Shown: one piece after another, positions 7,889 to 47,725 of the stretch
Layout: each line of letters opens with the position of its first letter
How positions within the stretch are numbered: position 1 is the first letter of the stretch
Virus record (IMG/VR): IMGVR_UViG_3300047555_000022
Coordinates: 1 to 52,583 of that record
Length of the DNA stretch: 52,583 bases
Source of the DNA: a virus
Lineage: Duplodnaviria > Caudoviricetes
Direction: 5' to 3' (one strand)
Program-made: the position numbers and the translations under genes
Notes under the pieces: generated by a model
Told to the model about the DNA's origin: nothing
What the model saw: only the letters and a program-made list of their open reading frames with translations
Databases searched by the model: none

Positions 7889-8920
7889 TTAACTACGTGA
7901 TGCTATAATAAAACCACCGCCGCTTTCGGGCATACATGAAAAGCAAATACTATTGCCAACTAAGTTCTTACTAATGTTTTTCACCTCTCTATTCAAATAA
8001 GAATAATATTGTTTTCTTTTTTCGGGTAAAATATCTTTAATTATTGCTTCTAAATTACGCTCTTTTAGATAATTAATTTGAGGGCTGTCGATTTGCAACT
8101 GTACTATTTGCATATAAACCTGTAACATATAAGCATCAGCCAAACTATCTTTATAGTCGCATATTATTTGCATTATATCGCAATCAACATTCGCAATTAC
8201 ACACAACGGACTGCCGTTTGCCAGCACCATTTCGCTATCAAGTTCAATTACATTATCAAATTCCACCGCTTGTGTAGTAGTGCTTTCTGAATACTTTGAG
8301 CATAAGCAACTACAACTATCAAAACTGTTGTCATTACAATTCATTAGATTAAATGCAACGTCAGCACTCGAAATTGTTACAATTACACTTTCTGTTTGCA
8401 ACTCGGCAATGAATGTTTTTTTTAACTCATAAGAATAGTATTTTTCTACTACTGCTATGTCAACAGTATAAAGAACATTCTTTGTCAGTAGGTCAATAAT
8501 AGATAAAGTAACCGTTCCAGCATTTTTAGGATAAAAAGAAACCCTTTTTATTTCTAAAACTTGGTGCTGTGCTTTCTCTAAATTAATGACTAATCCGTAG
8601 TTTTGCTTAGTAGATGAAAATGCAGTAAGTGGTCTAAATGTATCTACAAAGTCCATCTTTAATACTTCTTTCTGAAAACTTGCATACCTGCCGAAGGAGT
8701 CGATAATATTGCTTTTAAAAACACCCAAGGCATTTGCCTTTGCATTTTCTAACACCTCGTAATAAGAAGCGTGTTTGTTTGGGTCAGCTATGGCTTCCAA
8801 AAAGTCCGCACTTATTCCTCCAATTGAATCTATGCGTAATTTACAGGGCGTAGGAGTTTCGCACCCTGTTATTCCTATGAGGTCTGTTAGACAGTTATCG
8901 CAAATATCGTGTACTTTCAT
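7889..8920 (-). CDS. Putative head-tail connector / structural protein (Cys-rich)
   Basis: 343 aa in the structural operon; position only. Confidence 0.4.
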   Translation of the reverse strand: MKVHDICDNCLTDLIGITGCETPTPCKLRIDSIGGISADFLEAIADPNKHASYYEVLENAKANALGVFKSNIIDSFGRYASFQKEVLKMDFVDTFRPLTAFSSTKQNYGLVINLEKAQHQVLEIKRVSFYPKNAGTVTLSIIDLLTKNVLYTVDIAVVEKYYSYELKKTFIAELQTESVIVTISSADVAFNLMNCNDNSFDSCSCLCSKYSESTTTQAVEFDNVIELDSEMVLANGSPLCVIANVDCDIMQIICDYKDSLADAYMLQVYMQIVQLQIDSPQINYLKERNLEAIIKDILPEKRKQYYSYLNREVKNISKNLVGNSICFSCMPESGGGFIIASRS

Positions 8921-9429
8921 TTTTTGTAATTTCTTGAAAATTCAATTACTCTGTCTTTTAACTTTGATAGACTCTCAATATCTTCCTTTTCTTTTGTAAC
9001 ACCTATCCAGTCAGAATAGAAGTCTGCCAAACTTCCCGAAAACCTAATTGCTTGACAAATGGTATTTCGGGCTGTCGTTTCGGGTAAGCTATCAATGCTA
9101 AATCCTGCCTGTGTTGAAACTATTAGAATCGGCTTCATGTCGAGTACCTCAAACTGAGGTTTTGATAATTGACAAAGCCATTCCATAAACATAGGAGGGA
9201 GGTTTTTATAATAAGACGGCACTACGAAAATTATCTTACTGCATTGAGCCACTAAGTTGTACGTGTCATCAAACCTACCTGTTAAATACTGCTTAGAAAA
9301 CCCTTCGACTTCAATCTGATTAAAGTTAGCATCAATGCCATCTTTTAATAAGACATCTACAATGCTATTACTAACGCTCAAAGAATAACTACCCTTTCGT
9401 TGTGTTGTATTTATAACCGCTATTTTCAT
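8917..9429 (-). CDS. Flavodoxin-fold NAD(P)H-dependent FMN reductase-like protein
   Basis: MKIAVINTTQRKGSYS start, IIFVVPSYYKNLPP and KPILIVST motifs typical of the FMN_red family. Confidence 0.7.
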   Translation of the reverse strand: MKIAVINTTQRKGSYSLSVSNSIVDVLLKDGIDANFNQIEVEGFSKQYLTGRFDDTYNLVAQCSKIIFVVPSYYKNLPPMFMEWLCQLSKPQFEVLDMKPILIVSTQAGFSIDSLPETTARNTICQAIRFSGSLADFYSDWIGVTKEKEDIESLSKLKDRVIEFSRNYKK

Positions 9430-12986: not shown

Positions 12987-13691
12987 TTATTGTTCCAATT
13001 CGTTTGAACAAATGGCGAAAATCTTTTCAAGATGTCCTAACCTTTCTGCTACGTCAAGCATAGATTCGTTTTTTGCTTTGAGAACGGCACGAAGCGAAAC
13101 ACCGTAGCGATAGTATAGCCTATCATAGACTACGTGCCAAACACTTCTTTGGTCGGCATTTTTAGCGTTGCAATATTGATTTATCAATTTCCTTATCTTT
13201 GCCCTTGTAGTTTCTTCAGGTATCTTTTCCGTTGAACGTTCTGCCAGTAGCAACTCTTGAGTAGCTACATTTCGGCTTTCTTCAATAGCTGTCAATCTAC
13301 TATCAAACTCTAATTGCTTCTTTTCAATATCAACTAAGAGTTGAGCATTTGCTAAAAGTTGTTCGGCTGGTGAAAGTGGCTTTTTTAAAACTTTCTCACA
13401 CTCAATAAAATACAACCGTGCTTGTTTGCCTTTGTCAGTACGCTGTACCATTGAAATTTCTTTGGCAGTATCCAGTGTTAAAGCAAAGTCGGTTTTATTA
13501 TTACCGCCCCAAACTCGCTCGTCATTTTTGACGACCAAGATATAGTCTTTATTTTCTTCAAAACCATATTCAAACATTCTTTTGCACCATTTGGCAAATT
13601 CAGTTTTCACTTCTAAGAACTTATGCAACTCTCTTGCACTTACTACTTGCGAGCCTTGCTCATTTGCTGTTACTTTGATTAATTCTTGCAT
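12987..13691 (-). CDS. Antirepressor-family protein: AntA/AntB N-domain + ORF6C-like C-domain
   Basis: VSARELHKFLEV...W...GFEENKDY...LTLDTAKEISM...KGKQARLYFIECEK. Confidence 0.85.
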   Translation of the reverse strand: MQELIKVTANEQGSQVVSARELHKFLEVKTEFAKWCKRMFEYGFEENKDYILVVKNDERVWGGNNKTDFALTLDTAKEISMVQRTDKGKQARLYFIECEKVLKKPLSPAEQLLANAQLLVDIEKKQLEFDSRLTAIEESRNVATQELLLAERSTEKIPEETTRAKIRKLINQYCNAKNADQRSVWHVVYDRLYYRYGVSLRAVLKAKNESMLDVAERLGHLEKIFAICSNELEQ

Positions 13692-13700
13692 TTTGTTTAC

Positions 13701-13820
13701 AAAAAAAAATACCCTTGTAGGTTTTTGTGCTTGAACAGGGTGCTTTAAAACCCAACACTAAACCTACAAAGGCAAAATATCTTAAAAGCGTTTCGGCGTT
13801 CAAACCGTAGTACAAATATA
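13701..13820 (-). ncRNA. Antirepressor leader RNA B (promoter, 5' pairing segments, branched terminator)
   Basis: TATATTTG box at 13813-13820; stem CCTTTGTAGGTTT/AAACCTACAAGGG followed by a T9 run; GTTTGAACG pairs with TGTTCAAGC. Confidence 0.7.
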
Positions 13821-13852
13821 CAAATATATTTTCACTTTCCAACTTAGAAAAT

Positions 13853-14115: not shown

Positions 14116-14130
14116 GTTAGTGGCAAGCTA
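14116..14130 (-). repeat. Cassette-end motif TAGCTTGCCACTAAC outside the main array
   Basis: Identical to the ends of cassettes 2 and 4 (26150-26164, 27688-27702); overlaps the stop codon of the Rha gene. Confidence 0.75.
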
Positions 14131-14826
14131 AGAGAATATCCTCGAATAGTTATTGACGATATAATCAAGACCTTTCTTAGTGATTACGATTTTCTTGACT
14201 TTCATCTCTTTTTGACCTCGTGTTATAGTTTCAAAGAAAGTTCTGGCAAATCCTTGCTCTTCTACATTTCGAGTTGATGATGTGCCTTTGCTCGAATCTT
14301 TCATAGCCCAACCAATTTCTTTGAGTTTTGAACTAAGATTATTTCTACCTACGTTGATGATGTCGGAAACCGTGTCCAAGGTGTAAACTGTTGAATTGTC
14401 AATAACTCGGTCAAACGCTTCTACTTTCGGGGTTTGTTCAAGAACTTTTGCTTCGGCAAGTTGTTTGGCTTCTTCTGAAACTACTAACGCTTTGAGTGCT
14501 GAAACAAAATCATGTGGCAAAACTAAAACATTTTGTTGTGCTTTTTTCATTTCTGACCAGTCGTCAATTATTTTCATTCTTAGTGAAATCGAATAGCCAC
14601 TTGCAAGGCATAATGATAACCTTTCGGTGAGAAGAATTTCGGAATCATAGCCACGATTGTCTTTAATTACTTGAAAAGAATCATGGTTCAGAGTTGAATC
14701 ATCTTTTTCTAATTCAAAAAGCATATTTCTAATATCTCTAAGAACGTTTGAATGCTCTTTTCCTGTCTTCTCGGCAATTTGCTTACTCGACATCTTTTGA
14801 GTTGTACTTTTTACAATTTCTTGCAT
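14128..14826 (-). CDS. Antirepressor-family protein: Rha N-domain + KilAC/ANT C-domain
   Basis: MSSKQIAEKTGKEHSNVLRDIRNM (Rha) and PKVEAFDRVID...ITKKGLDYI (KilAC). Confidence 0.85.
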   Translation of the reverse strand: MQEIVKSTTQKMSSKQIAEKTGKEHSNVLRDIRNMLFELEKDDSTLNHDSFQVIKDNRGYDSEILLTERLSLCLASGYSISLRMKIIDDWSEMKKAQQNVLVLPHDFVSALKALVVSEEAKQLAEAKVLEQTPKVEAFDRVIDNSTVYTLDTVSDIINVGRNNLSSKLKEIGWAMKDSSKGTSSTRNVEEQGFARTFFETITRGQKEMKVKKIVITKKGLDYIVNNYSRIFS

Positions 14827-14837
14827 TTCTTAAAACA

Positions 14838-14951
14838 AAAAAGAGGAGTGTTTTATGTAGCTCTGAAAGGGTAGATTTGAAACCCAACTACAAAAAACAA
14901 ACTCCTCAATATCTTAAAATCTTTTCGGTTTCAGTCCGTACTACAAATATA
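14838..14951 (-). ncRNA. Antirepressor leader RNA C
   Basis: TATATTTG box; stem GAGGAGT...ACTCCTC followed by a T run; CTGAAA pairs with TTTCAG and AGATTT with AAATCT. Confidence 0.65.
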
Positions 14952-15016
14952 CAAAACAATTCGTTATTAGCAAGCAATTGGCGACAATTAATTAGCGAAG
15001 CTGTTAAGGCTTGTAA

Positions 15017-24047: not shown

Positions 24048-24311
24048 ATGAAAAACAAAGTCAATAAATACTCAGATGCACAAGTTGTAAGGCTTTACAA
24101 TAGGCGAATTACAGTAACTAAAAAAGAAGACAAAATTTGTGTCTTATTACAAGCTGTATTGCCAACAGAGGAACTAAACTTTAATGGCTGTGGTATTCGT
24201 GGGAGCTTTAAACAAACGTGTTTTGGTTTAACAAGAGAGGCTGCAATGGCTTTGTGTTATTCCTTGAATGAAGTTTTAAATATGCAGCCTGTGTCCCAAA
24301 GTAACAGCTAA
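24048..24311 (+). CDS. Hypothetical protein ending in the first attC-like site
   Basis: TAA stop lies inside AGCTAAC. Confidence 0.55.
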   Translation: MKNKVNKYSDAQVVRLYNRRITVTKKEDKICVLLQAVLPTEELNFNGCGIRGSFKQTCFGLTREAAMALCYSLNEVLNMQPVSQSNS

Positions 24312-24480
24312 CACTTTGTTATGGGCAGTACGGTCAAATGTTCGGGAACTTCCGTCAGCCTAAACAAATGCTAAAAATGTTTGAACTAACCCGATGCTGA
24401 ATAGAATTACTAAACTTTAAAATTAAAAACGAATGTTGATAGAAGAACTAAACAGCCATTTTGCCAAACCCGTGTTATCG
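24306..24480 (+). repeat. attC-like site 1 (arms poorly matched)
   Basis: AGCTAAC...GTTATCG; contains the family motifs ACTTCCGTCAGCC and AATAGAATTAC. Confidence 0.55.
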
Positions 24481-25170
24481 GCTGGCGTTTTACGAGTTTT
24501 GATTGCTTGTGAGGAAAGTCAAACAGTAACAAAAGAATTTAGAAAATTAGGACACGAAGCGTTTTCGTGTGATATAATTCCGTGTAGCGGTGGACACCCC
24601 GAATGGCATATCCAACACGATGTAACAGATATATTAAAATTGAAGTGGGATATAATAATAGCACACCCACCTTGCACACATTTAGCCGTAAGTGGGTCAA
24701 GACACTTCGTGAAAAAACGTGCTGATGGCAGACAACGTGAAGCAATAGATTTCTTTATGAAATTTTTAGATGTTGATTGCAAATTAGTTGCAGTTGAAAA
24801 TCCAATAGGTATTATAAGTGGAAATTATGTTAAAGAACATTTTACTGATTTAGCTGAAAAATACGGATTACCAATTAAACACCAACAAATCATTCAACCG
24901 TTTGAATATGGCGACCCTGTAAAAAAATCAACTTGCTTATGGTTAAAAGGTTTACCAAAATTAGAACCTACAAACAATGTAGCTGACGAAGTTAAATACT
25001 ATGTAGATAGTAGAGGAATAAAACAAAGTGAATGGAATGTTAGACAGCTTGAAATTGATGGCAAAAAATACGGATATGATACAGCAGAATTTAAAAAACA
25101 TCGTTCAAAAACGTTTGATGGAATTGCAAATGCCATGGCTTTGCAGTGGTCGTCTTACGCTTGCCGATAA
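24433..25170 (+). CDS. DNA cytosine-C5 methyltransferase-like protein (cassette 1)
   Basis: RVLIACEES, AHPPCT (catalytic PC), VENP, RSKTF.GIA.AMA.QW motifs. Confidence 0.85.
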   Translation: MLIEELNSHFAKPVLSAGVLRVLIACEESQTVTKEFRKLGHEAFSCDIIPCSGGHPEWHIQHDVTDILKLKWDIIIAHPPCTHLAVSGSRHFVKKRADGRQREAIDFFMKFLDVDCKLVAVENPIGIISGNYVKEHFTDLAEKYGLPIKHQQIIQPFEYGDPVKKSTCLWLKGLPKLEPTNNVADEVKYYVDSRGIKQSEWNVRQLEIDGKKYGYDTAEFKKHRSKTFDGIANAMALQWSSYACR

Positions 25171-25256
25171 CGAAGGTATTTAAGAAGGACGGCTGTGAAC
25201 AAACGTGGCGTACGCTAACCAACTGTCTGCCGTCTTTCTGAAATACAATGTTAGTG
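25165..25256 (+). repeat. attC-like site 2
   Basis: CGATAAC; arms GTATTTAAGAAGGACGGC/GCCGTCTTTCTGAAATAC; GTTAGTG. Confidence 0.8.
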
Positions 25257-25301
25257 GCTGGCTTTTTTGTCAGATGTGCTTGGAAATACGAAATAACTTT
25301 G

Positions 25302-25421
25302 TATATTTGCATACGGTTTCAACGCCAAAAATGCTTTAAGATATTTTACCTTTGTAGGTTTAGTCGTTGGGTTTTAAGCAACCCTGTTGAAGCGATGAAA
25401 ACCTACAAAGGTATTTTTTTT
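25302..25421 (+). ncRNA. Antirepressor leader RNA A
   Basis: TATATTTG box; 15-bp stem TACCTTTGTAGGTTT/AAACCTACAAAGGTA followed by T8; GTTTCAACG pairs with TGTTGAAGC. Confidence 0.7.
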
Positions 25422-25432
25422 GTAATACCAAA

Positions 25433-26152
25433 ATGGAATTAATCAAAGTAACAACTACCGAAAAAAGTAACACAGTGTCTGCAAGAGAATTGTATGAGTT
25501 TTTAGAAGTGAAAACTCAATTCACAAAATGGTGTGAAAGAATGTTTGAATATGGATTTGAGGAAAACAAGGACTATTTATTGGTTAGTCAAAAAAGACTA
25601 ACCAATAATCCAAAGAATCCTTTCGCAACAGAATCAGACTACGCTCTCACGCTTGACACAGCAAAAGAAATATCAATGCTCCAACGTTCTGAAAAAGGTA
25701 AGCAAGCAAGGCAATATTTTCTCGAATGTGAAAAACAACTTAAAGGAAAAACTCCATCATACCAAATTGAGGACAAAATACAACGTGCAAAGGTTTGGAT
25801 AGAAGAAGAAGAAAATAGACTGCTATTGCAAGAAAAGAACGAGAAACTACAATTTAGGTCAGACTTTGTGGATGTTTGTTTCGATACGAATGGAATGTTT
25901 TCAATGGAAGAAACCGCAAAGATTTTTAAATTGCCTTTTGGAAGAAACGAAATGATGAAGCAACTAAGAGATAAAGGCATATTGACAAAAGAATCAAATA
26001 CTCCTACTCAAAAGTACGTTTCAAATGGATATTTCAAAGTAGTTGAAACTATGGTAGAAAATGGTGCTTTCAAAAAATTAGTTTCAACTACCTACGCAAC
26101 GCAAAAAGGAATTGGATATATTCACAAATTGTTCAAGAACGAACTTGTTTAG
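25433..26152 (+). CDS. Antirepressor-family protein: AntA/AntB + KilAC/ANT (cassette 2)
   Basis: VSARELYEFLEV... N-domain; GRNEMMKQLRDKGIL...PTQKYV..GYF...TQKG C-domain. Confidence 0.85.
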   Translation: MELIKVTTTEKSNTVSARELYEFLEVKTQFTKWCERMFEYGFEENKDYLLVSQKRLTNNPKNPFATESDYALTLDTAKEISMLQRSEKGKQARQYFLECEKQLKGKTPSYQIEDKIQRAKVWIEEEENRLLLQEKNEKLQFRSDFVDVCFDTNGMFSMEETAKIFKLPFGRNEMMKQLRDKGILTKESNTPTQKYVSNGYFKVVETMVENGAFKKLVSTTYATQKGIGYIHKLFKNELV

Positions 26153-26157
26153 CTTGC

Positions 26158-26354
26158 CACTAACGAACAGGGCTTTGCGGTCGTTTGGGAATTTGAAAAA
26201 CGTCCGATTGGAACTGCTGCTGAATAAAATTACTAATGATTAAAATACTTACAAATGCACAATAAAGAACGTCAAGCCGAAACAGAAGTTGATAGCGAAC
26301 AAATGCCCATTGATACAACGTCAAGCCCAAATGCCGCAAAACCCAATGTTGTAC
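26158..26354 (+). repeat. attC-like site 3
   Basis: CACTAAC; arms GGGCTTTGCGG(T)CGTTTGGG/CCCAAATGCCGCAAAACCC; GTTGTAC. Confidence 0.8.
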
Positions 26355-26545
26355 GCTGCTTTTGTATGGTCTGCGGTAATGAATTTCAAGGTGAAGAACC
26401 TAAAATGTGTTGTAGTGGTAGAGATTGTGGATGTATGGGAATGCCTATCGACCCTGTCGTTTGTTCTGATGAATGTTATAATAATTTACCAATGTTTAAA
26501 AACAGAAATGATGAAAAACAAAAAGTCGTATTGGATGAAAAGTAA
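26255..26545 (+). CDS. Cys-rich small protein (cassette 3); starts within site 3
   Basis: CMVC, CCSGRDCGC and CSDEC motifs. Confidence 0.65.
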   Translation: MHNKERQAETEVDSEQMPIDTTSSPNAAKPNVVRCFCMVCGNEFQGEEPKMCCSGRDCGCMGMPIDPVVCSDECYNNLPMFKNRNDEKQKVVLDEK

Positions 26546-26678
26546 AGAAGGCAATGTCGCAAGTGTAACTTTTGAAGGAAGTAGAAAGCCGTCAAAAAAA
26601 ACAGTTGAAGCATTAAGCACAATGATTGATTTGGCTTTTCATAAACTTTCAAAGGAAAGTAAGCTGTCCGCTAAGTAG
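26508..26678 (+). CDS. Small basic hypothetical protein (cassette 3)
   Basis: 3' part of ORF 26289..26678, from MMKNKK. Confidence 0.5.
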   Translation: MMKNKKSYWMKSKEGNVASVTFEGSRKPSKKTVEALSTMIDLAFHKLSKESKLSAK

Positions 26679-26679
26679 C

Positions 26680-26772
26680 GTACAACGAAGGTATTTAAGA
26701 AGGACGGCAGGGAGTGAACTTTGCGAAACGCCAACCAACTGTCTGCCGTCTTTCTGAAATACTATGTTGGTG
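26680..26772 (+). repeat. attC-like site 4 (close paralogue of site 2)
   Basis: GTACAAC; same arms as site 2; GTTGGTG. Confidence 0.8.
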
Positions 26773-26820
26773 GCTGGCTATATTTTTGTTCCATGTTCTT
26801 GGAAATACCAAATAACTTTG

Positions 26821-26937
26821 TATATTTGTGCATGGTTTCGCAGCCAAAAGAAAAATAAGACATTTAGGCGTTGTTCTGTTAGGATTGGGTTATTTTTTCA
26901 CCCTTGCGAAGTCCAAAACAGAACAATGCCTTTTTTT
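26821..26937 (+). ncRNA. Antirepressor leader RNA D
   Basis: TATATTTG box; stem AGGCGTTGTTCTGTT/AACAGAACAATGCCT followed by a T run; TTCGCAG pairs with TTGCGAA and GAAAAA with TTTTTC. Confidence 0.7.
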
Positions 26938-26946
26938 GTAAACAAA

Positions 26947-27690
26947 ATGCAACATATTGAAATTTTCAAGTACAATGAAACCCCAATTGAGTTTGAGGTA
27001 ATCAATGGAGAAGTTTTTGCAAATGCAACAATCATGTGTAAAGCCTTTGAAAAAAGACCCACAAAATGGTTAGAGTTAGAATCTACAAAACGATACATTG
27101 AGGCATTAAAAGTGAAGTCCTCAAATAGTACATCACTAATTGAGGTTAGAAAAGGAAACTCAACAGAATTTTCACAAGGAACTTGGATTCACGAGAAGTT
27201 GATTTTGAAATTAGCAACATGGTTAGATGTTAATTTCGAACTATGGTGCGATGAAAAAGTTACTGAATTATTAAAAAATGGGAAGGTTGAATTGAAACCC
27301 AAAACGCAAATTGAAATTTTGTTAGAAAGTGTTCAAATGTTAGCAAGCATTGAACAAAAGCAAAATGACATGGATTTGAGAATAACGGCAATTGAGCAAA
27401 CAAATCAACTTGCCTTAGCCGAGTTGAATCATATTGAAAGGAGTACGGAGGAAGTTCCCGAAATTGGCATAAGATTGAAAATTAATCAAATAGTAAGAGC
27501 CTATTCGGAAAAAACAGGAATTGCATATCAAGATATTTGGCGGTCAATGTATTCAAAGATGTTATACGCATATCGCTTCAATCCGAATGCCTATAAGAAA
27601 TTGCATGACAAAGAAACCAAGTTAGATATAATCGAAAGGGAAAATCAACTCGATAATCTCTTTGCTATTGTTTCAAAGGAACTTGTTTAG
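26947..27690 (+). CDS. KilA-N domain + ORF6C-like C-domain protein (cassette 4)
   Basis: NATIMCKAFEKRPTKWL...QGTWIHEKL...ATWL..NFELWCD. True start is MQHIEIF at 26947. Confidence 0.85.
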   Translation: MQHIEIFKYNETPIEFEVINGEVFANATIMCKAFEKRPTKWLELESTKRYIEALKVKSSNSTSLIEVRKGNSTEFSQGTWIHEKLILKLATWLDVNFELWCDEKVTELLKNGKVELKPKTQIEILLESVQMLASIEQKQNDMDLRITAIEQTNQLALAELNHIERSTEEVPEIGIRLKINQIVRAYSEKTGIAYQDIWRSMYSKMLYAYRFNPNAYKKLHDKETKLDIIERENQLDNLFAIVSKELV

Positions 27691-27695
27691 CTTGC

Positions 27696-27891
27696 CACTA
27701 ACGAAAAAGGCTTTGTGTCAGGCAATGGAATTGAAATACGTCTGACCGAACCAAAGCTAAATAGAGTTACAAAAGATAAAAATTATTACAAATGAACAAT
27801 AAAGAACTTCTGCCCGAACCGCAGCCAAATAGTGAACAAATGCCGATTGATAGCACTTCTGCCATTGCTTGCACAAAACCCAATGTTGTAC
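27696..27891 (+). repeat. attC-like site 5 (paralogue of site 3)
   Basis: CACTAAC; arms GGCTTTGTG(T)CAGGCAATGG/CCATTGCTTGCACAAAACC; GTTGTAC. Confidence 0.8.
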
Positions 27892-28106
27892 GCCGTTTTT
27901 TCTTCGTGTGTACAGCAGGTAGAGAGTTTAACAATAGTATGTCATTTAATGCTTTTGATATTAAAACAGACGATGGTAATTACCCAACTTATAGAAAATG
28001 TTTAGAAGTTTCCGAAACAAAATATCCAAACCAAAGGTCGGTTACACTTTTAAGTATTTCAGAAGTACCAAAAGAAGATTGGGAACATTTTGTATCTATT
28101 CAATAA
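27792..28106 (+). CDS. Hypothetical protein (cassette 5); starts within site 5
   Basis: N-terminus resembles that of 26255 up to KPNVVR, then is unrelated. Confidence 0.6.
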   Translation: MNNKELLPEPQPNSEQMPIDSTSAIACTKPNVVRRFFFVCTAGREFNNSMSFNAFDIKTDDGNYPTYRKCLEVSETKYPNQRSVTLLSISEVPKEDWEHFVSIQ

Positions 28107-28125
28107 CAATTAAAAAATAAAAATT

Positions 28126-28437
28126 ATGAAATTCAAAAACGATGTCGCAAATTATCACAAAATGAGTGAGCCACACGAAAGCCCCGAAAAAGCAAATGAA
28201 GCTCTCGAAAAGTTTTATGAAAAAGTATCAGAAGCAAGAAAAGAATTTAAGATTGCAGATGTACTTGTCATTACAAAAGGCAGTATTAAATACGCAGATG
28301 GCGAAGAAGGACAATTTATGCAGCATAGTCAATTTGGAAGCCAATTAAACGGTGTATCAATGGCTGCTTATGCTTATGGTCAATTACAAGCAGAAGATAG
28401 AGAACTGTTAAACAAATTAGTTGCAGGTAAAAGGTAG
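28126..28437 (+). CDS. Hypothetical protein (cassette 5)
   Basis: ORF track. Confidence 0.6.
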   Translation: MKFKNDVANYHKMSEPHESPEKANEALEKFYEKVSEARKEFKIADVLVITKGSIKYADGEEGQFMQHSQFGSQLNGVSMAAYAYGQLQAEDRELLNKLVAGKR

Positions 28438-28451
28438 TGTCCACAAATGGC

Positions 28452-28585
28452 GTACAACGTACAAGTATTTATGAAGAAGGGGGAATTTGGAAAACGTCAG
28501 CCCCCGTAACTTACTAATTTTCAATAGAATTACAACAGTTCAATTACTTCCGTCAGCCCCCTTTTTCATAAATACAGTGTTGGTG
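28452..28585 (+). repeat. attC-like site 6
   Basis: GTACAAC; arms GTATTTATGAAGAAGGGGG/CCCCCTTTTTCATAAATAC; GTTGGTG. Confidence 0.8.
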
Positions 28586-28653
28586 GCTGGCGTTTTTGTC
28601 CACGGGAGAAGTTTCTGCCCATTTTAAAATGAAACAACTAAATAAATTATATC

Positions 28654-29427
28654 ATGAAAGTAATTAATCAAGTCAATCAGACCACTGATTATGGTAAATT
28701 TCAAAGTTTGAACGGTAATAGAAATGTTAATGCTCTTCATGTGAGACGCTTACAAGAATCTTTTGCCAAATCTTATTTACTAAGTCCAATTTTAGTAAAT
28801 GATAAGTTTGAGATTATTGATGGACAGCATCGCTTTGAAGCTGCCAAAAAATTAAACCTGCCAATAAACTTTATTTCTATCCCAAACTATGGATTGGAGC
28901 AAGTTCAGTTGCTAAACACAAATATGAAAAATTGGAAATCAGAAGATTATTTACAAGGGTTTTGCGATTTAAAATATCCTGAATATTTAAAGTTTAGAAA
29001 TTTTATGAGACAATTTCCAAGTTTTTTGTTTCAAGGTTGCGATATTTTGTTAAATGATACATCAAACGGTTCTGATAAGCAACAGAATAGCAAGGAACTG
29101 ATAACTAAAACAAATAAGGCAGGCGATTATAATAAAAATTTATTTAAAGAGGGCGAATTGAAAATTCCCAATTATGAAAAAAGTGTTGCCAATGCTAATA
29201 ATTTGATGAGATTAAAAGATTATTATGAAGGGTACAATCGAACAATTTTTATAAGAACAATGGTCGTACTTTTCAAACATGAAAATTTTGATTTTGAGGT
29301 ATTTATTTCAAAGGTGAAGTTAAATCCAACATCATTAAAACCATGTGTTTCGGTAACAGATACAAAATTATTGATTGAGGAAATTTACAATTATCGAAAT
29401 CAAAACAAAGTGTCTTTGAGGTATTAG
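28654..29427 (+). CDS. ParB/Srx-like N-terminal domain protein (cassette 6)
   Basis: GNRNVN...PILVN...IIDGQHRFEA motif. Confidence 0.75.
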   Translation: MKVINQVNQTTDYGKFQSLNGNRNVNALHVRRLQESFAKSYLLSPILVNDKFEIIDGQHRFEAAKKLNLPINFISIPNYGLEQVQLLNTNMKNWKSEDYLQGFCDLKYPEYLKFRNFMRQFPSFLFQGCDILLNDTSNGSDKQQNSKELITKTNKAGDYNKNLFKEGELKIPNYEKSVANANNLMRLKDYYEGYNRTIFIRTMVVLFKHENFDFEVFISKVKLNPTSLKPCVSVTDTKLLIEEIYNYRNQNKVSLRY

Positions 29428-29457
29428 CATTGACTGGCAAGTGCCTAGTACGCTTGC

Positions 29458-29590
29458 CACCAACGTAAAAGTATTGCCGAAGGGCAGGGATTAGAATTAC
29501 AAAACTTCAAAATAAGTACAAATGAACAATAGAATTACAAATGCTGATGAACTTACGTCAGCCCTGCCTTTTGGCAATACAGTGTTACCT
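29458..29590 (+). repeat. attC-like site 7
   Basis: CACCAAC; arms GTATTGCCGAAGGGCAGGG/CCCTGCCTTTTGGCAATAC; GTTACCT. Confidence 0.8.
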
Positions 29591-30106
29591 GCTGCCCTTT
29601 TGCAGTCTGACATTATGAATAAAATAATTGTTGAAATATACAATGGGTGGCCTGGAGAAACTGGTTTACAAAGAGTAATTGAAAAGGTAAACTTTCTTTG
29701 TGAAAGAGTTCCGCAGTATGCCAAAATTATGGGCAAAACAGACCTTGAAACTTTGGAGCTATTTGCAAAATCAAGAAATTGTAATTACACAAACTACTTT
29801 CAGAATGCAAACTTCCCCGATTTATCAGAGGTGTATGTTTTTGATACGATTGAAGATGTAAAGGCAAAGTTTCCAAGTAAAACATATCAATGCCCTTGCT
29901 GTGGTGGAATTTCAACCGATTATCAAGAATGCAATTCAGGTAAAACAGTTGATAAAAAAGGCAAAGAAGTCTGTAATTGGAAAGTTTACGGATTGTTTGG
30001 GGATATGGGAAAAGGAATTAAGGTTATTGTAAAAGATATGTTTACCGAAATCCCAAAACCTGTCGCAATGTTTAAGCCTGTTGAACTCTTAGAGGCTGTC
30101 TCTTAG
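29522..30106 (+). CDS. Hypothetical Zn-finger-like protein (cassette 7); alternative start 29615
   Basis: CPCC...C...CNWKVYGLF motif. Confidence 0.65.
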   Translation: MNNRITNADELTSALPFGNTVLPAALLQSDIMNKIIVEIYNGWPGETGLQRVIEKVNFLCERVPQYAKIMGKTDLETLELFAKSRNCNYTNYFQNANFPDLSEVYVFDTIEDVKAKFPSKTYQCPCCGGISTDYQECNSGKTVDKKGKEVCNWKVYGLFGDMGKGIKVIVKDMFTEIPKPVAMFKPVELLEAVS

Positions 30107-30112
30107 GGTTGC

Positions 30113-30243
30113 AGGTAACGGATTAGGTGTTTAAGAAGGACTGGAAATAGAATTACAAAAGTTCGTTTACTTCCAACTGTCAAGTAATGCTTGAATGTTC
30201 AATTAACCACGTCCGCCAGTCTTTCTTAAACACCCTGTTAGTG
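30113..30243 (+). repeat. attC-like site 8
   Basis: AGGTAAC; arms GGTGTTTAAGAAGGACTGG/CCAGTCTTTCTTAAACACC; GTTAGTG. Confidence 0.8.
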
Positions 30244-30304
30244 GCTGCCGATTTTGGTTGCACAAATATTTTAATCTTTTTTTTGGAAGTATGAAAAACG
30301 TTAT

Positions 30305-30512
30305 TACATTTGTGTATCCAATTCGCATAGCGGTCGCTACCGCTCAAATCATAGCGGTTTTTTTGTGCCTTATAGTTTTTAATGATACCGATGGTAAAAC
30401 ACGGTGTCGCAACTACCGTAATTGTTTGAACACAATTGCCCTATGCGGGTTGGATAACGGAAAGAGCGGCACCGTGTTTTGTCGTTTACAAGCATTAAAA
30501 TCCAATAGCGTA
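30305..30512 (+). ncRNA. c4-antisense-like leader RNA (cassette 8)
   Basis: TACATTTG box; TATCCAATTCGCATAG pairs with CTATGCGGGTTGGATA; stem AAAACACGGTGTCGC/GCGGCACCGTGTTTT; second ATCCAA target next to ATG 30513. Confidence 0.6.
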
Positions 30513-30800
30513 ATGCAAACAAATCAAACCATCGCTTTATCTTCCATGAGTGAAGATGCGAACCTCCCAACCGCCTTGCAAGAGGCAATCAACGAGTTTT
30601 TCTGTTATAACGGCACACCTGCCGATATTGACGAAAAGCTATTTTCCATGCTCGAATCCGCCACCGCAGGCGTTGAAGAAGTCGGCTTAGATGCCAAAGA
30701 AGTTTTAGGCTATCTTTTCTTCTACAAAACCGACAAAGTCCTTTTCAATCAGCTACATTCTTTCACCGCTAAAACTAACGTAGAGCTATGCAAGAACTAA
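30513..30800 (+). CDS. Small protein upstream of an antirepressor (icd-like position)
   Basis: MQTNQTIAL start after the leader; overlaps the antirepressor start. Confidence 0.55.
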   Translation: MQTNQTIALSSMSEDANLPTALQEAINEFFCYNGTPADIDEKLFSMLESATAGVEEVGLDAKEVLGYLFFYKTDKVLFNQLHSFTAKTNVELCKN

Positions 30801-31459
30801 TTAAAGTTGCGACTAATTCGCAAGGCGAAAGGGTCGTAAGTGCAAGAGAACTTTATGAATTTTTGGGAATGAATAATGCCGTTTTTGCTCGTTGGTCAAA
30901 AAAGAACATTGAAGAAAACCAATTTGCAATAGAAAATGAAGACTGGGCTATGCTCAACATCATGTTGAGCAATGGGAATCAAACCAAAGATTACGCTTTA
31001 AGTTTAGATTTTTCAAAGCGTATTTCAATGATGGCACGAACAGAAAAAGGCGAACAGTTGCGAAATTATTTTATTGAGTGTGAAAAGGCATTGAAGGCAA
31101 CCGTACCAGTAGCGATTTCAATAGAAGATGCTTTGATACAGCAACTACTCGTTACAAAGGCTATTCGCATAGAGCAAGAGCAAATAAGAGCAAAGCAAGT
31201 TGAACAAGATGCACGAATATTGCAAATCGAAGCCAAGACCACCACACGCCCAGAATATTTTACAGTCATGGGTTATGCTATTTTGCAAGGGGCAAGGGTC
31301 GGTTTATCATTAGCGGCTCAAATAGGCAAAAAAGCCAAAACTATATGCAGTACAAAAGGCTATCACATTGACAAAATCCACGACCCACGTTTTGGACAGG
31401 TCGGGTGCTACCCTGCCGATGTACTCAAAGAAGTATTCAATACAACTACTTTTTCGTAG
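30788..31459 (+). CDS. Antirepressor-family protein: AntA/AntB + distinct C-domain (cassette 8)
   Basis: VSARELYEFLG...KGEQLRNYFIECEK; C-domain RPEYFTVMGYA...DPRFGQV..YP. Confidence 0.85.
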   Translation: MQELIKVATNSQGERVVSARELYEFLGMNNAVFARWSKKNIEENQFAIENEDWAMLNIMLSNGNQTKDYALSLDFSKRISMMARTEKGEQLRNYFIECEKALKATVPVAISIEDALIQQLLVTKAIRIEQEQIRAKQVEQDARILQIEAKTTTRPEYFTVMGYAILQGARVGLSLAAQIGKKAKTICSTKGYHIDKIHDPRFGQVGCYPADVLKEVFNTTTFS

Positions 31460-31527
31460 CGTTGTCAAGTCGGGGCAGTCGTTGGCTGTCCCACTTTTCA
31501 AAGTGTCGAAGTGGTTTTTTCGGTTGC

Positions 31528-31600
31528 CACTAACACGCAGATTGACGCAATTGAAAAACATAACTCTTTGATAATTAAAGAGTTATGTTTGCGTATTATG
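31528..31600 (+). repeat. Terminal degenerate attC-like site 9 with a perfect inner hairpin
   Basis: CACTAAC; AAACATAACTCTTT/AAAGAGTTATGTTT; no closing GTT. Confidence 0.5.
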
Positions 31601-32718: not shown

Positions 32719-33294
32719 ATATCGGCAAGAAGTCTTTATGAGTTTTTAGAAATAAAAGAACATTTCACTCAATGGATTGAAAGAATGTTCGATTACGGGT
32801 TTAATGAAAGTGTTGATTATCAGGCGATTAAGGAATTTATTAATCATTCAAATGGAGTTGGAGGTACTTATAAAACTGAATATGCCTTGACATTGGATAC
32901 TGCGAAAGAAATAGCAATGCTACAAAGAACCGAAAAAGGAAAACAAGCAAGGCAGTATTTTATTGAGTGTGAAAAGCAAAATAAAATGAAACCGATGTCA
33001 ATTGAGGAGATGATTATTGCAAATGCTCAAAGTATGATTGATACTAAAAAACGATTAACAAATTTGGAGGATTTTACGCATACTAAATTTGAAGAAACGT
33101 TTACTAAAATTGACGAAATTAAAGCATTGTCATCAACAAGACCTGAGTATTTTACAATAGTTGGTTATGCTTCTTATATGCGTGTCCATGTTGATAACAC
33201 AAGTGCTAAAAAGTTAGGTGCAATTGCTGCAAAACTTTGCAAAGAACGTGGATTGCCTATTGATAAAGTTCCAGATACTCGATGTCGCAAGTAA
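32719..33294 (+). pseudogene. Antirepressor (AntA/AntB + 30788-type C-domain) clipped at both ends
   Basis: In-frame ISARSLYEFLEIKEHFTQW upstream of ATG 32785 has no standard start codon; the C-domain stops at DTRCRK. Confidence 0.6.
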
Positions 33295-36105: not shown

Positions 36106-36810
36106 ATGCAAGAACTAATTCAAATCACAACCAACAATCAAGGATTGAAAGTTGTTTCAGCAAGAGAATTATATGCTTTCTTAGGTTATGAAAGTAATAA
36201 GTTTGCAAGATGGGCGAAATCTAAAATCTTAGAAAACGATTTTGCTATTGAAAATGAAGATTGGCAGGGGTTAGACATTAATGTCCAAGGCAACATTACC
36301 AAAGATTACGCACTAAGTATTGATTTTTCAAAGCGTTTATCACAAATGGCAAGAACAGCCAAAGGTGAAGAAATAAGAAATTACTTCATTGAGTGCGAAA
36401 AGCAATTACAGACACCAAAAGAGCTAAGTAGAAAAGATATTTTGTTGCTTGCCTTAGAATCGGAAGAGCGTGCAATTTTAGCCGAAACCAAGATTTTAGA
36501 ATTGCAACCCAAAGTTGAAGCGTTCGACCGAGTAATAGATAATTCAACTACTTATACACTTGACACCGTTTCCGATATTATTAATATTGGTAGAAACAAA
36601 CTATCTGAAAAGTTAAAGCAAATCGGCTGGGCGGTCAAAGATTCAAGCAAAGGAACGTCAAGCACTCGCAAGGTAGAAGAAATAGGTTACGCTCGTACTT
36701 TCTTTGAAACGATAGTAAACGGACAAAAGGAACTGAAAGTAAAGAAAATCGTTATTACCAAAAAAGGACTTGACTATTTAGTAAATAATTATTCTAAGAT
36801 TTTTGCGTAG
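36106..36810 (+). CDS. Antirepressor-family protein: AntA/AntB + KilAC/ANT
   Basis: N-domain resembles 30788; C-domain is nearly identical to that of 14128..14826. Confidence 0.85.
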   Translation: MQELIQITTNNQGLKVVSARELYAFLGYESNKFARWAKSKILENDFAIENEDWQGLDINVQGNITKDYALSIDFSKRLSQMARTAKGEEIRNYFIECEKQLQTPKELSRKDILLLALESEERAILAETKILELQPKVEAFDRVIDNSTTYTLDTVSDIINIGRNKLSEKLKQIGWAVKDSSKGTSSTRKVEEIGYARTFFETIVNGQKELKVKKIVITKKGLDYLVNNYSKIFA

Positions 36811-45502: not shown

Positions 45503-46105
45503 TTATAAAAGTTGTGTGTTTAAAAATAGTACTGCAATAATTTTTGTGCCGTCCATTACCTCCGTCCCTTCATGTATCATTTGTTTATCTCCAACTTGAT
45601 TTACAAGATTCTTCCAAACATAAACAGTCCCTTTTTTTGCCGAAAACTCTAAATTATTTAGCAATGGAAACTTTGTTTGACCACCTCGCAAGGCATTTTG
45701 TAAGCCTATCATAATCGTAAACATTCGATTACCTGATACATTTTTATTGTCCTCAAACCAATCAAAATGCGGGCGTAACTTCTGACCTTTTTTATATTTT
45801 ATTATATCAATCGTTGTTGCTATTTGCTTTATCGTAGTCGATTTTCCAAATAGACCCTTTGATATGATTTCTAATTTTTGATGAATAAGTGTATCAATTC
45901 CTGAACCTCTCGAAATTGCCGCAATATCAGAATCCCTATAATGTGTATCTACAATTACTGCCCCTGAGCTATCTACAACTGTCCCAACACTCGAAAACTC
46001 TAAAGGAGCAGAAAGGATTCTATCAATTTCTGAGTCAGTAAATAACCCATCAATTGAAAAAAACTTTTGATTTTCAATTACCTTTAGCATCCTCCGACCG
46101 TCCAA
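45503..46105 (-). CDS. 2OG-Fe(II) oxygenase, prolyl-4-hydroxylase-like
   Basis: KY..GQ...PHFD, NRMFT, GGQTKFP, HEGTEV..GTK motifs. Confidence 0.85.
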   Translation of the reverse strand: MDGRRMLKVIENQKFFSIDGLFTDSEIDRILSAPLEFSSVGTVVDSSGAVIVDTHYRDSDIAAISRGSGIDTLIHQKLEIISKGLFGKSTTIKQIATTIDIIKYKKGQKLRPHFDWFEDNKNVSGNRMFTIMIGLQNALRGGQTKFPLLNNLEFSAKKGTVYVWKNLVNQVGDKQMIHEGTEVMDGTKIIAVLFLNTQLL

Positions 46106-46948: not shown

Positions 46949-47725
46949 CTAAGCTATCAATGATTTTAATGTGTAATCAAACATTTTTTTGTTCCCCTCT
47001 AAGTTCGGAGTTTGGGTAAACGAACTGCTTAACAATAATGCGTTTGTTTTTGCTCGCACATTCTTTAAGGTCAATCGGTCGTTTTCTTTCAATACATTTA
47101 ACAAAGCCCATGTAAACGCACCCTGATACGAGTCATTAATATACGCATCTGCACTTGTTTGTTTATCTTGACAGCCTGTAATTAAAACACCATCAAAATC
47201 ATAAGGTTTTACCCTTTCAGTTCCGATAGATATGTTTTCAATTATATCTTTCATGACTTCTGTAGGAATTGGCATAGAACGAGATTTTTGTTCTTTTCCT
47301 GCAACTAAGTTGCGAGTAGAAAGCCCTCCTGAGTGGCACGAGTCGCTTACCCAAAGTTTTTGAACCCCAATATTAAAACCCTTCCACATTTCTGCATAAT
47401 TAGTGTCTGTAATAAAGGTCTTCATGTCGTCCCATGAAAAATTGACTGGGCAAACAAGTTGGTGAAACTTTTTATCAACAGGTATTTCTACGCCATGACC
47501 CGAAAATTGGTGAATAACCAAATCCCATCTTTTCGCCTTTGCTTTTACCTTTTCAAACGCTTTGCGAATATTATCGGCTGTGGCATAAGCATCATACAAC
47601 TGAATTACTTCAACAGGCTTGCCTAATGAATTTATATATTTTAGGAAATTATCGCCATCATTTACGCACCCATTCAACGGAGCGGTAGGGTACTTATTGA
47701 CGCAAGCCTGTATAAGATAAATCAT
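46949..47725 (-). CDS. Caspase-family (peptidase C14, metacaspase-like) protease
   Basis: LNGCVND, FSGHG (His), SDSCHSGG (Cys), GC...QTSADA, GAFTWAL, QTPNL motifs. Confidence 0.9.
   Translation of the reverse strand: MIYLIQACVNKYPTAPLNGCVNDGDNFLKYINSLGKPVEVIQLYDAYATADNIRKAFEKVKAKAKRWDLVIHQFSGHGVEIPVDKKFHQLVCPVNFSWDDMKTFITDTNYAEMWKGFNIGVQKLWVSDSCHSGGLSTRNLVAGKEQKSRSMPIPTEVMKDIIENISIGTERVKPYDFDGVLITGCQDKQTSADAYINDSYQGAFTWALLNVLKENDRLTLKNVRAKTNALLLSSSFTQTPNLEGNKKMFDYTLKSLIA

Follow-up and report, generated by a model that had tools for sequence, protein, structure and literature searches.

attC-like hairpin sites in an integrase-less phage array and an apparently undescribed family of probable cassette recombination sites in Bacteroidota

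Eight hairpin sites, all in the same orientation, lie between the early genes of a phage at 24306-30249 of the window (the whole 52,583-nucleotide stretch analysed). The question is what kind of site these are, and which enzyme acts on them. The 52.6-kb record has direct terminal repeats and a CheckV completeness of 48%. The reading favoured here, with reasonable but far from full confidence, is that they are attC-like single-strand hairpin recombination sites of a separate Bacteroidota lineage, which the phage carries as an integrase-less array.

The sites are on the plus strand and are designated A to H. Many of their features are those of a site family captured by a model, R1, which is described below; sites F, G and H are part of its training set. 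Site A (24306-24486) is a degenerate first site, with an R1 score of 24.8 bits at 24376-24488 when filters are off. Its right box, GTTATCGGC, is complementary to the left box of site B, and its loop has a repeated motif at 24400 and the ATG at 24433 that opens a methyltransferase frame. Site B (25159-25262; stem scan 25169-25252) is of a short class, with 84 nt from AAC to GTT and one G·T at GAAG; it scores 43.1 bits on the plus strand and 15.6 bits on the minus strand, the highest reverse-strand R1 score of any window site. Site D (26675-26778; stem scan 26684-26768; 85 nt from AAC to GTT; 34.2 bits) is a near-copy of B (91% over 57 nt; repeat family D1) with a different left box. Site C (26152-26360; 45.3 bits) is of a long class (approximately 189 nt) which is also seen among host arrays. 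It has an ATG at 26255 in its loop. Site E (27690-27897; 37.6 bits), also long at 188 nt from AAC to GTT, is a copy of C (repeat families D2 and D11) with an ATG at 27792 in the loop. The remaining three sites are of the modal class. These are site F (28446-28591; stem scan 28456-28581; 126 nt; 81.8 bits), which has a stem of 19 pairs with one G·T; site G (29452-29596; stem scan 29462-29586; 125 nt; 101.6 bits), which has two G·T and an ATG at 29522 in the loop; and site H (30107-30249; stem scan 30117-30239; 123 nt; 97.6 bits), which has one G·T.

The original prediction had described sites of 92-197 bp with boxes that often break the classical consensus, G·T pairs at a conserved GAAG, and a bulged T in the third and fifth sites. 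Each of these descriptions holds. Distances of 84-189 nt from AAC to GTT, with 7-nt boxes, give 92-197 nt; measured from box to box, five of the eight sites fall within the classical attC range of approximately 57-141 bp and three are longer (181-209 nt). AAC and GTT triplets are present in the inverted outer boxes of all eight sites, but the right boxes GTTATCG, GTTAGTG, GTTGTAC, GTTGGTG and GTTACCT include no full fit to GTTRRRY; the three cited in the prediction (GTTGTAC, GTTACCT and GTTATCG) were all found. A strand-symmetric stem scan counts G (5' arm) opposite T (3' arm) once in B, F and H and twice in D and G, and finds no A·C or C·A in these five stems; the wobble is always at the last G of GAAG. 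The stems of B, D, F, G and H are ungapped. Read by eye, the 5' arm of C and of E (the arm that bears AAC when the better-folding strand is taken) contains a bulged T, and each of the two sites also has a C·A and a G·T. In the 52.6 kb a strict hairpin scan recovers no more than five of the sites (B, D, F, G, H) and a single weak match besides, as against 0-4 matches per shuffle. The window has no Rfam match at the gathering threshold; Rfam includes no attC model of the IntegronFinder/HattCI type.

Eight cassettes, which like the sites are on the plus strand, occupy 24433-31459. Pfam and PHROG matches and the list of open reading frames give their order: a DNA methyltransferase; an AntA/KilAC antirepressor; a small Cys-rich ORF; a KilA-N protein; two small ORFs; a ParB-like protein; a 194-aa ORF; and a 180-aa ORF with an AntA protein. 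The hexamer that follows a GTT can pair with the hexamer that precedes the next AAC: all six positions do so in seven of eight junctions, and five in the eighth. Within one site only two to four of the six positions pair. A lone left box, GGTTGCCACTAAC, at 31522-31534 on the plus strand has no hairpin and no R1 match. It is complementary to the right box of H and marks where the last cassette ends. With eight co-oriented sites in 6 kb and no tyrosine recombinase, the array is a CALIN: no PF00589 match occurs in the phage record, nor in four of five other viral records that bear arrays.

Pairing across the cassette extends beyond this phage. Hexamers pair perfectly across the cassette in 25 of 46 phage intervals and within the site in one; the corresponding figures for 101 host intervals are 64 and six. 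This pairing is the hallmark of integron cassettes. Among ten homologous pairs of host cargo genes, from five cassette families, the core upstream on O+ (the label used here for the better-folding strand of a site) has an identity of 0.89 or more in all ten, and the downstream core is unrelated (no more than 0.53) in six. A host cassette thus consists of a gene followed by its downstream site. In host arrays O+ is non-coding. Host cargo includes HigB/HigA-like pairs, PIN and Cass2 proteins, DpnII restriction-modification, Mrr and STING-TIR, and is typical of chromosomal integrons. Among the 46 phage intervals there were no homologous cargo pairs, and no two closely related phages differing by one cassette were found.

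The R1 family has a constant plan. The 5' half consists of a variable hexamer, AAC, G, four to five unpaired bases, a stem of approximately 20 pairs and a patterned loop; the 3' half consists of the stem return, zero to two bases, T, GTT and a variable hexamer. An alignment of 50 sites has 88.7% paired cells, compared with 61.4% when shuffled, though its input sites were picked by our own scanner, which builds in part of the pairing and of the AAC/GTT anchors. Changes on both sides occur in 21 of 25 pairs, and the covariation score is 0.619, compared with 0.138 for shuffled alignments and approximately 0.1 with slid partners. Two positions have a fixed G·U (in 48 and 49 of the 50 sites), and C·A is frequent in modal sites. 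The arrangement AAC-G...T-GTT is present in 67 of 88 phage sites and 116 of 123 host sites; sites B, D, F, G and H have it together with the G·T at GAAG. Median length in the family is 123-124 nt, and a second class of 180-199 nt accounts for 26 of the 123 host sites. These near-invariant features, unlike those of classical attC, bear out the suggestion that the sites form a distinct family.

The search of Bacteroidota chromosomes that had been proposed was also productive: R1 sites were found, with a Xer-like recombinase gene at array ends. Of 151 Flavobacteriaceae genomes, 114 have R1 matches, as do 77 of 151 Bacteroidota genomes, and arrays often comprise dozens of sites. The matches in hosts are an independent confirmation of the AAC and GTT triplets. 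Ten host loci contain 100 matches, which are co-oriented inside each array, and 23 of 80 Erf-anchored viral loci have matches. R1 is not fully sensitive; it recovers just one of at least 11 sites assigned by eye to the family in Polaribacter phage P12002L. The family is apparently a large, undescribed class of gene-cassette recombination sites.

Strand bias raises a second possibility. There are 111 G·T compared with 15 A·C in 88 phage sites, and 195 compared with 38 in 123 host sites. O+ is more stable in 66 of the 88 phage sites and 97 of the 123 host sites; the two near-fixed G·T positions make it fold better than its complement. Genes in 32 phage intervals run in the same direction as O+ in 29 cases, opposite in one, and are ambiguous in two. 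It might be supposed that the phage hairpins act mainly in RNA, as terminators, processing sites or leader/attenuator elements, with shuffling a by-product of recombination between repeats. Several features agree with this: the stable strand is the sense strand in those 29 of 32 intervals, sense-strand RNA z-scores range from -3.9 to -6.4, runs of four to six T occur within approximately 10 nt past each right box, after an extended outer stem, and 31 of 85 phage sites have an ATG on O+ whose frame stays open for at least 30 codons past the site, compared with three of 85 on O-. About one third of phage sites thus contain an ATG in frame with the gene that follows. At the position where the phi46:3 homologue of the window methyltransferase starts, the window has TTA, and so the methyltransferase needs an upstream start. 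However, the same wobbles and loop patterning are found in host arrays, in which sites and genes are antisense to one another; the pairing of cassette-end hexamers is left unexplained by homologous exchange among direct repeats; and no site was called by a terminator consensus scan, although this counts for little because the scan is limited to loops of 3-8 nt. A mainly RNA-level function is improbable. An added RNA-level role in the phage is possible, since there the stable hairpin is on the sense strand, but the G·T bias is explicable without one.

Host genes explain the apparent top-strand bias. They run opposite to O+ in 52 of 62 intervals (four same, six ambiguous), so O+ in hosts is antisense to the cassette genes and is the conventional bottom strand. 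The window has a "top-strand" bias because genes in phage arrays run the opposite way to those in hosts. The G·T bias is therefore no adaptation to the phage or to RNA, since hosts have it as well.

Folding of both strands gives a divided answer. For B, D, F, G and H, DNA z-scores are -3.70, -5.62, -2.37, -2.38 and -3.98 on the top strand and -2.12, -4.32, -1.87, -2.02 and -3.14 on the bottom; RNA z-scores are -5.07, -6.35, -3.86, -4.78 and -5.30 on the top and -3.91, -4.89, -3.36, -2.20 and -3.23 on the bottom. All of these favour the top strand, as anticipated. Minimum free energies are less uniform, and several run contrary to the bias. Site G is near equal with DNA parameters (-18.1 top, -18.2 bottom), and the bottom strand of F is marginally more stable with RNA parameters (-42.6 top, -43.2 bottom). 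For A, C and E the bottom strand is better by 5.5, 11.2 and 17.8 kcal/mol with RNA parameters, and the strands are near equal with DNA parameters.

Loops also carry repeated motifs, as had been claimed; both exceed shuffled background. The first, AATAGAATTACWA, has 20 matches with up to two mismatches, compared with 9.5 +/- 3.2 in shuffled sequence (none of 100 shuffles reaches 20), and all seven plus-strand matches with no or one mismatch are inside site loops. ACKTCAGCC has 18 matches with up to one mismatch, compared with 10.4 +/- 3.4 (two of 100 shuffles reach 18); seven are inside sites. Judging from the motifs' recurrence, a putative accessory factor is suggested.

Which recombinase acts on the sites is approached through the hosts. 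One candidate would be a classical IntI from some host, recombining the bottom strand, with the odd features of the sites arising by neutral drift. The AAC/GTT triplets, two-stem layout, cassette hallmark and co-orientation are all consistent with IntI, the modal length of approximately 123 nt is inside the classical range, CALINs of virulent phages are published, and IntI1 recombined five of six phage attC sites tested (PMC9892861, available part). Yet none of 401 Flavobacteriaceae genomes has a protein above the integron-integrase cut-off of TIGR02249. P12002L_attC1, the sole tested site of this architecture, is the one for which the text and Table S3 of the same source give no verified IntI1 junction. 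Drift would not be expected to leave two G·T positions so constant (48 and 49 sites out of 50), and modal sites lack bulged extrahelical bases. IntegronFinder 2.0 reported just one complete Bacteroidetes integron (PMC9024848, available part), in contrast to R1 matches in 77 of 151 Bacteroidota genomes. Recombination by classical IntI is quite unlikely.

A Xer-like gene (L234:13599-14606) is located approximately 0.4 kb past the last site of a host array and is divergent from the cassette genes. Against the XerA-type model NF040815 its product reaches 220.1 bits. The alignment with XerA runs over the full length, and the IntI-specific insert (residues 198-237 in IntI4) is absent. Homologues (E <= 1e-45) are found in 88 of 151 genomes, 87 of which also have sites; 27 of the 63 genomes without a homologue have sites. 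The listed integrase is far from the listed sites in at least nine genomes, and one array end (G139) adjoins a flippase-like gene and a GLPGLI family gene but no recombinase. The link is correlative. The earlier proposal of a different recombinase gains comparative support from the lack of a tyrosine recombinase in the phage and of IntI in the 401 genomes, the co-occurrence of the Xer-like gene and the failure of the P12002L site with IntI1; the identity of the enzyme is inferred.

A second tyrosine recombinase, multi-copy and linked to an IS91-type transposase, is found exactly at site ends. Cassettes could instead be moved by this element (tyrosine recombinase plus Y2 transposase), with the sites as its targets or ends. 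It begins right after the GTT of a site in all four copies examined in two genomes, and again in G145, where copies cluster inside the array; all 18 carrier genomes (of 151) have sites. But these are just 18 of 114 site-bearing genomes, the copies are near-identical and insertion-sequence-like, and the phage has no such gene. Other elements are known to target attC sites without mobilising cassettes, which also counts against it. Movement of cassettes by this element is very unlikely; its recombinase could be the active enzyme or a mere parasite of the sites.

For attC-like sites of a separate lineage, exchange would take place on folded single-stranded DNA. A Xer-like tyrosine recombinase of the host, without the IntI extrahelical-base domain, would catalyse it in trans, and the fixed wobbles and asymmetric spacer may replace extrahelical bases as strand markers. 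The phage site may double as a 5' expression module for the next cassette.

Several known systems resemble this one. The dif modules of Acinetobacter plasmids have inverted sites mobilised by Xer-type tyrosine recombinases with no dedicated integrase; XerC/XerD act there on short double-stranded sites of 28 bp. Gene modules with inverted sites at their ends and a Xer-type enzyme are shared with R1, but dif modules are not known to have a long hairpin, a covarying stem or long co-oriented arrays. T4-type promoter-stem-loop cassettes, for which shuffling through homologous exchange of direct repeats has been proposed, are similar in having repeated intergenic stem-loops beside small early genes in a plastic region, and in their links to gene shuffling and to expression. 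Unlike R1, they are not known to have AAC/GTT boxes, cassette-end pairing or host-chromosome arrays.

Classical integrons are closer. Their attC sites are also imperfect palindromes with outer AAC/GTT boxes, an inner stem and a variable loop; their arrays are also co-oriented, with mostly promoterless small genes and toxin-antitoxin and defence cargo; the cassette start box pairs with the cassette end box; and in the host a recombinase gene is at one array end, divergent from the cassettes. R1 arrays differ in having no IntI-type integrase; the neighbour is XerA-like and without the IntI insert. R1 sites differ from attC in their conserved, repeated loop motifs, in boxes which often deviate from RYYYAAC/GTTRRRY, in the two fixed G·T and frequent C·A of modal sites in place of bulged extrahelical bases, and in an asymmetric spacer with extra bases on the AAC arm of O+. 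Classical attC sites have extrahelical bases opposite the AAC arm in the recombined strand, and extras on the AAC arm are the top-strand geometry (PMC5027507, available part). The unpaired extras of O+ are on the AAC arm and so show classical top-strand geometry; the cut strand is thus not deducible from the sequence.

The closest parallel is P12002L, for which Qi et al. 2023 (PMC9892861) predicted two sites in a description of CALINs in virulent phages, and treated them, in the available part of the paper, as ordinary attC. A scan of its early-gene strand finds at least 11. A tblastn comparison found no proteins common to P12002L and the window phage beyond one weak structural match. Both are lytic-type phages of marine Flavobacteriaceae hosts with an integrase-less attC-like cluster and methyltransferase cassettes, and P12002L_attC1 has the layout of the window family: AAC, G, 5 nt, stem, loop, stem, 3 nt ending in T, and GTT.

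The hairpin sites in the window follow an integron-like logic, fail several of the tests that define classical attC sites, and belong to a family that is widespread in Bacteroidota. Eight of them (sites A to H) lie co-oriented on the plus strand between 24306 and 30249, and a lone left box (31522-31534) is found past site H. Just beyond this box is a hairpin with a near-perfect stem of 17 bp and a loop of 1 nt (31556-31590). A strict hairpin scan of the whole window returned B, D, F, G, H and one weak match, compared with 0-4 matches in each shuffle. In these five sites, a strand-symmetric scan counted 1, 2, 1, 2 and 1 mismatches of G (5' arm) with T (3' arm), located at the last G of GAAG, and zero A·C or C·A mismatches. 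Sites C and E, read by eye from the sequence, each show a bulged T together with one C·A and one G·T. The original prediction of non-canonical attC-like hairpins is as a whole borne out in the window sequence: besides the G-T bias and the bulged T in the third and fifth sites, the site lengths, the off-consensus boxes and the repeated loop motifs all match its description. Sites B and D share 91% identity, and the promoter-like leaders 3' of both are homologous. Rfam models at gathering thresholds gave 0 matches over the window, and a scan for consensus promoters and terminators did not pick out the sites. An exact search of IMG/VR with a left-arm 15-mer gave 83 loci, 0 of which had a pairing right arm; they were rejected as chance matches.

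An expected advantage of the top strand in folding stood only in part. In all five modal and short sites, z-scores favour folding of the top strand over that of the bottom one, whether DNA or RNA parameters are used. By minimum free energy, the two strands of site G come out level when DNA parameters are used (-18.1 for the top, -18.2 for the bottom), and with RNA parameters the bottom strand of site F is marginally better (-43.2 versus -42.6 for the top). The bottom strand is also the better fold of sites A, C and E with RNA parameters, which counts against a uniform top-strand bias.

The 52,583-bp record, a whole IMG/VR entry from a tailed phage, has direct terminal repeats, yet its CheckV completeness is only 48%. 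Terminase, tape-measure and lysis genes are on the minus strand at both ends of the record; the plus-strand early block (17.5 to 36.8 kb) encodes DnaB, a single-strand binding protein, Erf, a NinB-like protein, RNase H, a DNA methyltransferase and several antirepressor paralogues. At the DNA level, the gene for Erf shares 82% identity with its counterparts in Cellulophaga phage phi19:1 and Olleya phage Harreka_1, a match which points to a marine member of the Flavobacteriaceae as host. No tyrosine recombinase gene is encoded in the record. Searches of the array against named phages (megablast and blastn) gave gene-level matches alone (Erf, methyltransferase and antirepressors) and left the sites themselves unmatched. 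Seven antirepressor-like genes of AntA, KilAC, Rha or KilA-N type are spread over both strands (12987-13691, 14128-14826, 25433-26152, 26764-27690, 30788-31459, 32785-33294 and 36106-36810). Paralogues share a conserved leader (25268-25432, 26784-26940, and on the minus strand 13700-13830 and 14840-14960) with a promoter-like stretch, TTTG...TATATTTG, and a hairpin with perfect 15-bp arms (25347-25361 and 25399-25413); this leader may be a common regulatory element. The minus-strand late region also encodes a caspase-family peptidase C14 domain protein (46949-47725), an FMN-reductase-like protein (8917-9429) and a 2OG-Fe(II) oxygenase (45503-46105).

The odd features define a site family and are not confined to this phage. 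Clusters of attC-like sites lacking an integrase (CALINs) are reported from virulent phages, Polaribacter phage P12002L among them, by Qi et al. 2023 (PMC9892861). P12002L has at least 11 sites of 54-203 nt on the early-gene strand, with the same layout as in the window and with G·T wobbles. Its proteins and those of the window phage have one weak structural match and nothing else by tblastn, which found no recombinase common to the two. Family sites were absent from the stretches fetched of Cellulophaga phages phi46:3 and phi19:1 and of Olleya phage Harreka_1. In a set of 80 IMG/VR loci that were anchored on homologues of Erf, the strict scan found 92 sites, compared with 25 in shuffles, in arrays of up to 8 sites with perfect pairing across cassettes. 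R1, a covariance model of the family which was built here, matched 23 of the 80 loci (78 matches, about 66 of them on the Erf strand). Erf-bearing contigs binned as Chitinophagales and Sediminibacterium carry sites of the family too (L169 4837-8334 and L173 11467-11589), in agreement with a phylum-wide spread.

Alignment of 50 sites of about 123 nt gave 88.7% paired cells versus 61.4% when shuffled, although pairedness (unlike the wobble positions and covariation) was partly built in by a scanner that demanded a stem and the AAC and GTT anchors of the outer boxes. Pairs vary on both sides at 21 of 25 positions, and covariation is 0.619, compared with 0.138 when shuffled and about 0.1 with slid partners. 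Two G·U pairs are near-invariant: that between the base after AAC and the base before GTT (48/50 sites) and that at the last G of GAAG (49/50). A third position is G·U in 23 sites and G-C in 15; a fourth is unpaired in 20, mostly as C·A.

The family is native to host chromosomes. At E <= 0.001, R1 had matches in 114 of the 151 Flavobacteriaceae genomes sampled, many of them with at least 20 scored candidates, and at E <= 1e-6 in 77 of the 151 Bacteroidota genomes sampled. In 10 host loci there are 100 matches, co-oriented throughout each array and spaced by about 0.5-3 kb; one genome (G139) carries dozens of sites across more than 50 kb. The AAC-to-GTT length class of 180-199 nt, to which window sites C and E belong, accounts for 26 of 123 host sites. 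Repeats of the selfish REPIN or MITE type were ruled out, as the copies form dense co-oriented arrays with cassette-specific end boxes and are not scattered singles.

The wobble bias characterizes the family as a whole. With sites detected symmetrically and oriented from spacer asymmetry alone (O+ being the strand with the long 5' spacer and O- its complement), 88 phage sites contain 111 G·T, 9 T·G, 15 A·C and 32 C·A mismatches, and 123 host sites contain 195, 9, 38 and 77, respectively. O+ is the more stable strand as DNA in 66/88 phage and 97/123 host sites. In host arrays, the longest ORF between sites is opposite to O+ in 52 cases, the same in 4 and ambiguous in 6; in phage arrays it is the same in 29, opposite in 1 and ambiguous in 2. 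In hosts, O+ is the non-coding strand and corresponds to the conventional bottom strand. The predicted top-strand bias is real in the phage, but it arises because phage genes run along O+ and host genes run opposite, and not because the sites have changed. In classical attC sites, the strand that recombines has its extrahelical bases opposite the AAC arm (PMC5027507). Here the unpaired extras of the better-folding strand are found on the AAC arm itself, and the cut strand therefore cannot be deduced by analogy in the comparison with Nivina et al.

In the window array, the hexamer 3' of each GTT is complementary to the hexamer 5' of the AAC of the next site: seven of eight junctions pair at 6/6 positions and one at 5/6. 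The two hexamers of one and the same site pair poorly (2-4 of 6 positions). Such pairing across the cassette is the mark that a crossover within the box leaves, as is the case for the cassettes of integrons. In 10 host pairs of homologous cargo from five cassette families, the core upstream on O+ is at least 0.89 identical in all 10, and the downstream core is unrelated in 6; pairs made by the 10-kb overlap of contig ends were excluded. Since cargo copies keep the O+-upstream core, the host cassette is, on the coding strand, a gene followed by its site, as in integrons. Homologous cargo pairs, which would indicate the core that travels with the gene, were not found in the phage arrays. In G139, the final 10 kb of contig C1 is an exact copy of the initial 10 kb (L233 9188-19187, L227 1-10000); the duplication, located within the cassette array, probably reflects overlapping assembly ends of a circular chromosome. 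Two further left boxes without a hairpin, GCTTGCCACTAAC (14116-14128) and GCTTGCTAATAAC (14963-14975), both on the minus strand, flank the minus-strand Rha/KilAC antirepressor gene (14128-14826) of the window phage; they may be remnants of a cassette relocated outside the array.

Each site in the phage arrays is 5' of the gene it precedes. An ATG within the site whose frame stays open for at least 30 codons beyond it occurs on O+ in 31/85 phage sites, compared with 3/85 on phage O- and 13/111 on host O+. In the window, the frames from ATGs at 24433, 26255, 27792 and 29522 cross the right arm into the downstream gene; the window methyltransferase has TTA at the position where its phi46:3 homologue starts. 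Host loops (n=120) are enriched in GTTCAAT (41 versus 0.7 expected), TTAGCAC (39 versus 0.6) and GCACAAA (28 versus 0.8), and phage loops in GTACAAA (14/67 versus 0.8) and AATTATG (10 versus 1.0). The window loop motif AATAGAATTAC(A/T)A appears to be a local form of a repeated family motif. A putative role of the phage hairpins at the RNA level is plausible, but would not account for the wobble bias.

The integron-integrase cut-off was passed by 0 of 401 genomes. In host genome G047, a 335-aa tyrosine recombinase is encoded just beyond the last site, divergent from the cassette genes. It scores 220.1 bits with a XerA-type model and 193.5 bits, in two pieces, with the integron-integrase model; it aligns end to end with XerA and has no counterpart of IntI4 residues 198-237, the IntI-specific insert. 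Of the 151 genomes, 88 have a homologue (E <= 1e-45), mostly in one copy; R1 matches occur in 87 of these 88 and in 27 of the 63 genomes without one. Among the matches listed, no more than 15 kb separates the integrase from a site in at least 14 genomes, where the gene is on the O+ strand and 3' of the site; in at least 9 genomes it is far from the sites. No obvious half-site pairing with the last right box was seen beside the G047 integrase. The best candidate for the enzyme that acts on the sites is, by inference, a Xer-like recombinase supplied in trans by the host. In each copy examined, a second recombinase, accompanied by an IS91-family Y2 transposase, begins immediately after a site's GTT. 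This unit starts with GAACTAAACC, is multi-copy, and is found in 18 of 151 Flavobacteriaceae genomes (copies at L193 681, 6721 and 9879, L192 ~11086 on the minus strand, and L229 7574-9506); it is read as an element homing to the sites.

One overall reading, which we offer tentatively and consider rather doubtful, is that about half of the sampled Bacteroidota carry a parallel cassette system. Its large arrays of hairpin sites on the chromosome would be served by a Xer-type recombinase without the IntI domain, and fixed wobbles or mismatches would replace extrahelical bases as the strand marker. Their phages would keep mirror-image arrays of these sites in which the site, 5' of the gene, is at once a start-codon and leader module and an mRNA hairpin; the sites would be a recombination currency common to phage and host for defence and counter-defence genes. 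If this is true, integron-style gene capture is not bound to IntI, and a Xer-like enzyme with a differently marked hairpin suffices; the family would also be a natural test of strand choice encoded without extrahelical bases. The phage arrays, with their flipped genes and their cargo of methyltransferases and antirepressors, would be a sign that phage-host conflict involves direct cassette traffic or competition.

In recent integron surveys (PMC9024848; 10.1101/2024.07.02.601686), Bacteroidota are regarded as nearly integron-free: IntegronFinder 2.0 recorded one complete integron in Bacteroidetes (PMC9024848), and the 2024 preprint (10.1101/2024.07.02.601686) places Bacteroidota among the clades earlier found without integrons. 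No prior description of these Bacteroidota and phage arrays was found in the literature searched, the coverage of which was partial. P12002L_attC1 of Qi et al. (PMC9892861) has the layout of this family, and in that study it was the only one of six tested sites without a verified IntI1 junction. Should the overall reading hold, a major phylum that is near-empty of integrons by current tools would contain such a capture system, along with a large unexplored cassette pool; the sampled arrays include restriction-modification, STING-TIR and toxin-antitoxin genes. R1, or a refined version, would detect arrays that standard attC models appear to miss. Among the products of host cassettes are HigB/HigA-like pairs, PIN toxins, a Cass2 integron-associated protein, restriction proteins of the DpnII and Mrr types, a STING-TIR protein and many proteins with no family assignment. 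Host arrays therefore carry anti-phage defence genes, as in the cassettes for a TIR-STING protein (L228 12143-13093), a DpnII-type restriction-modification set (L227 11463-14139) and a RelA/SpoT-like protein (L227 4018-5052). In cassette content, the host arrays resemble sedentary chromosomal integrons.
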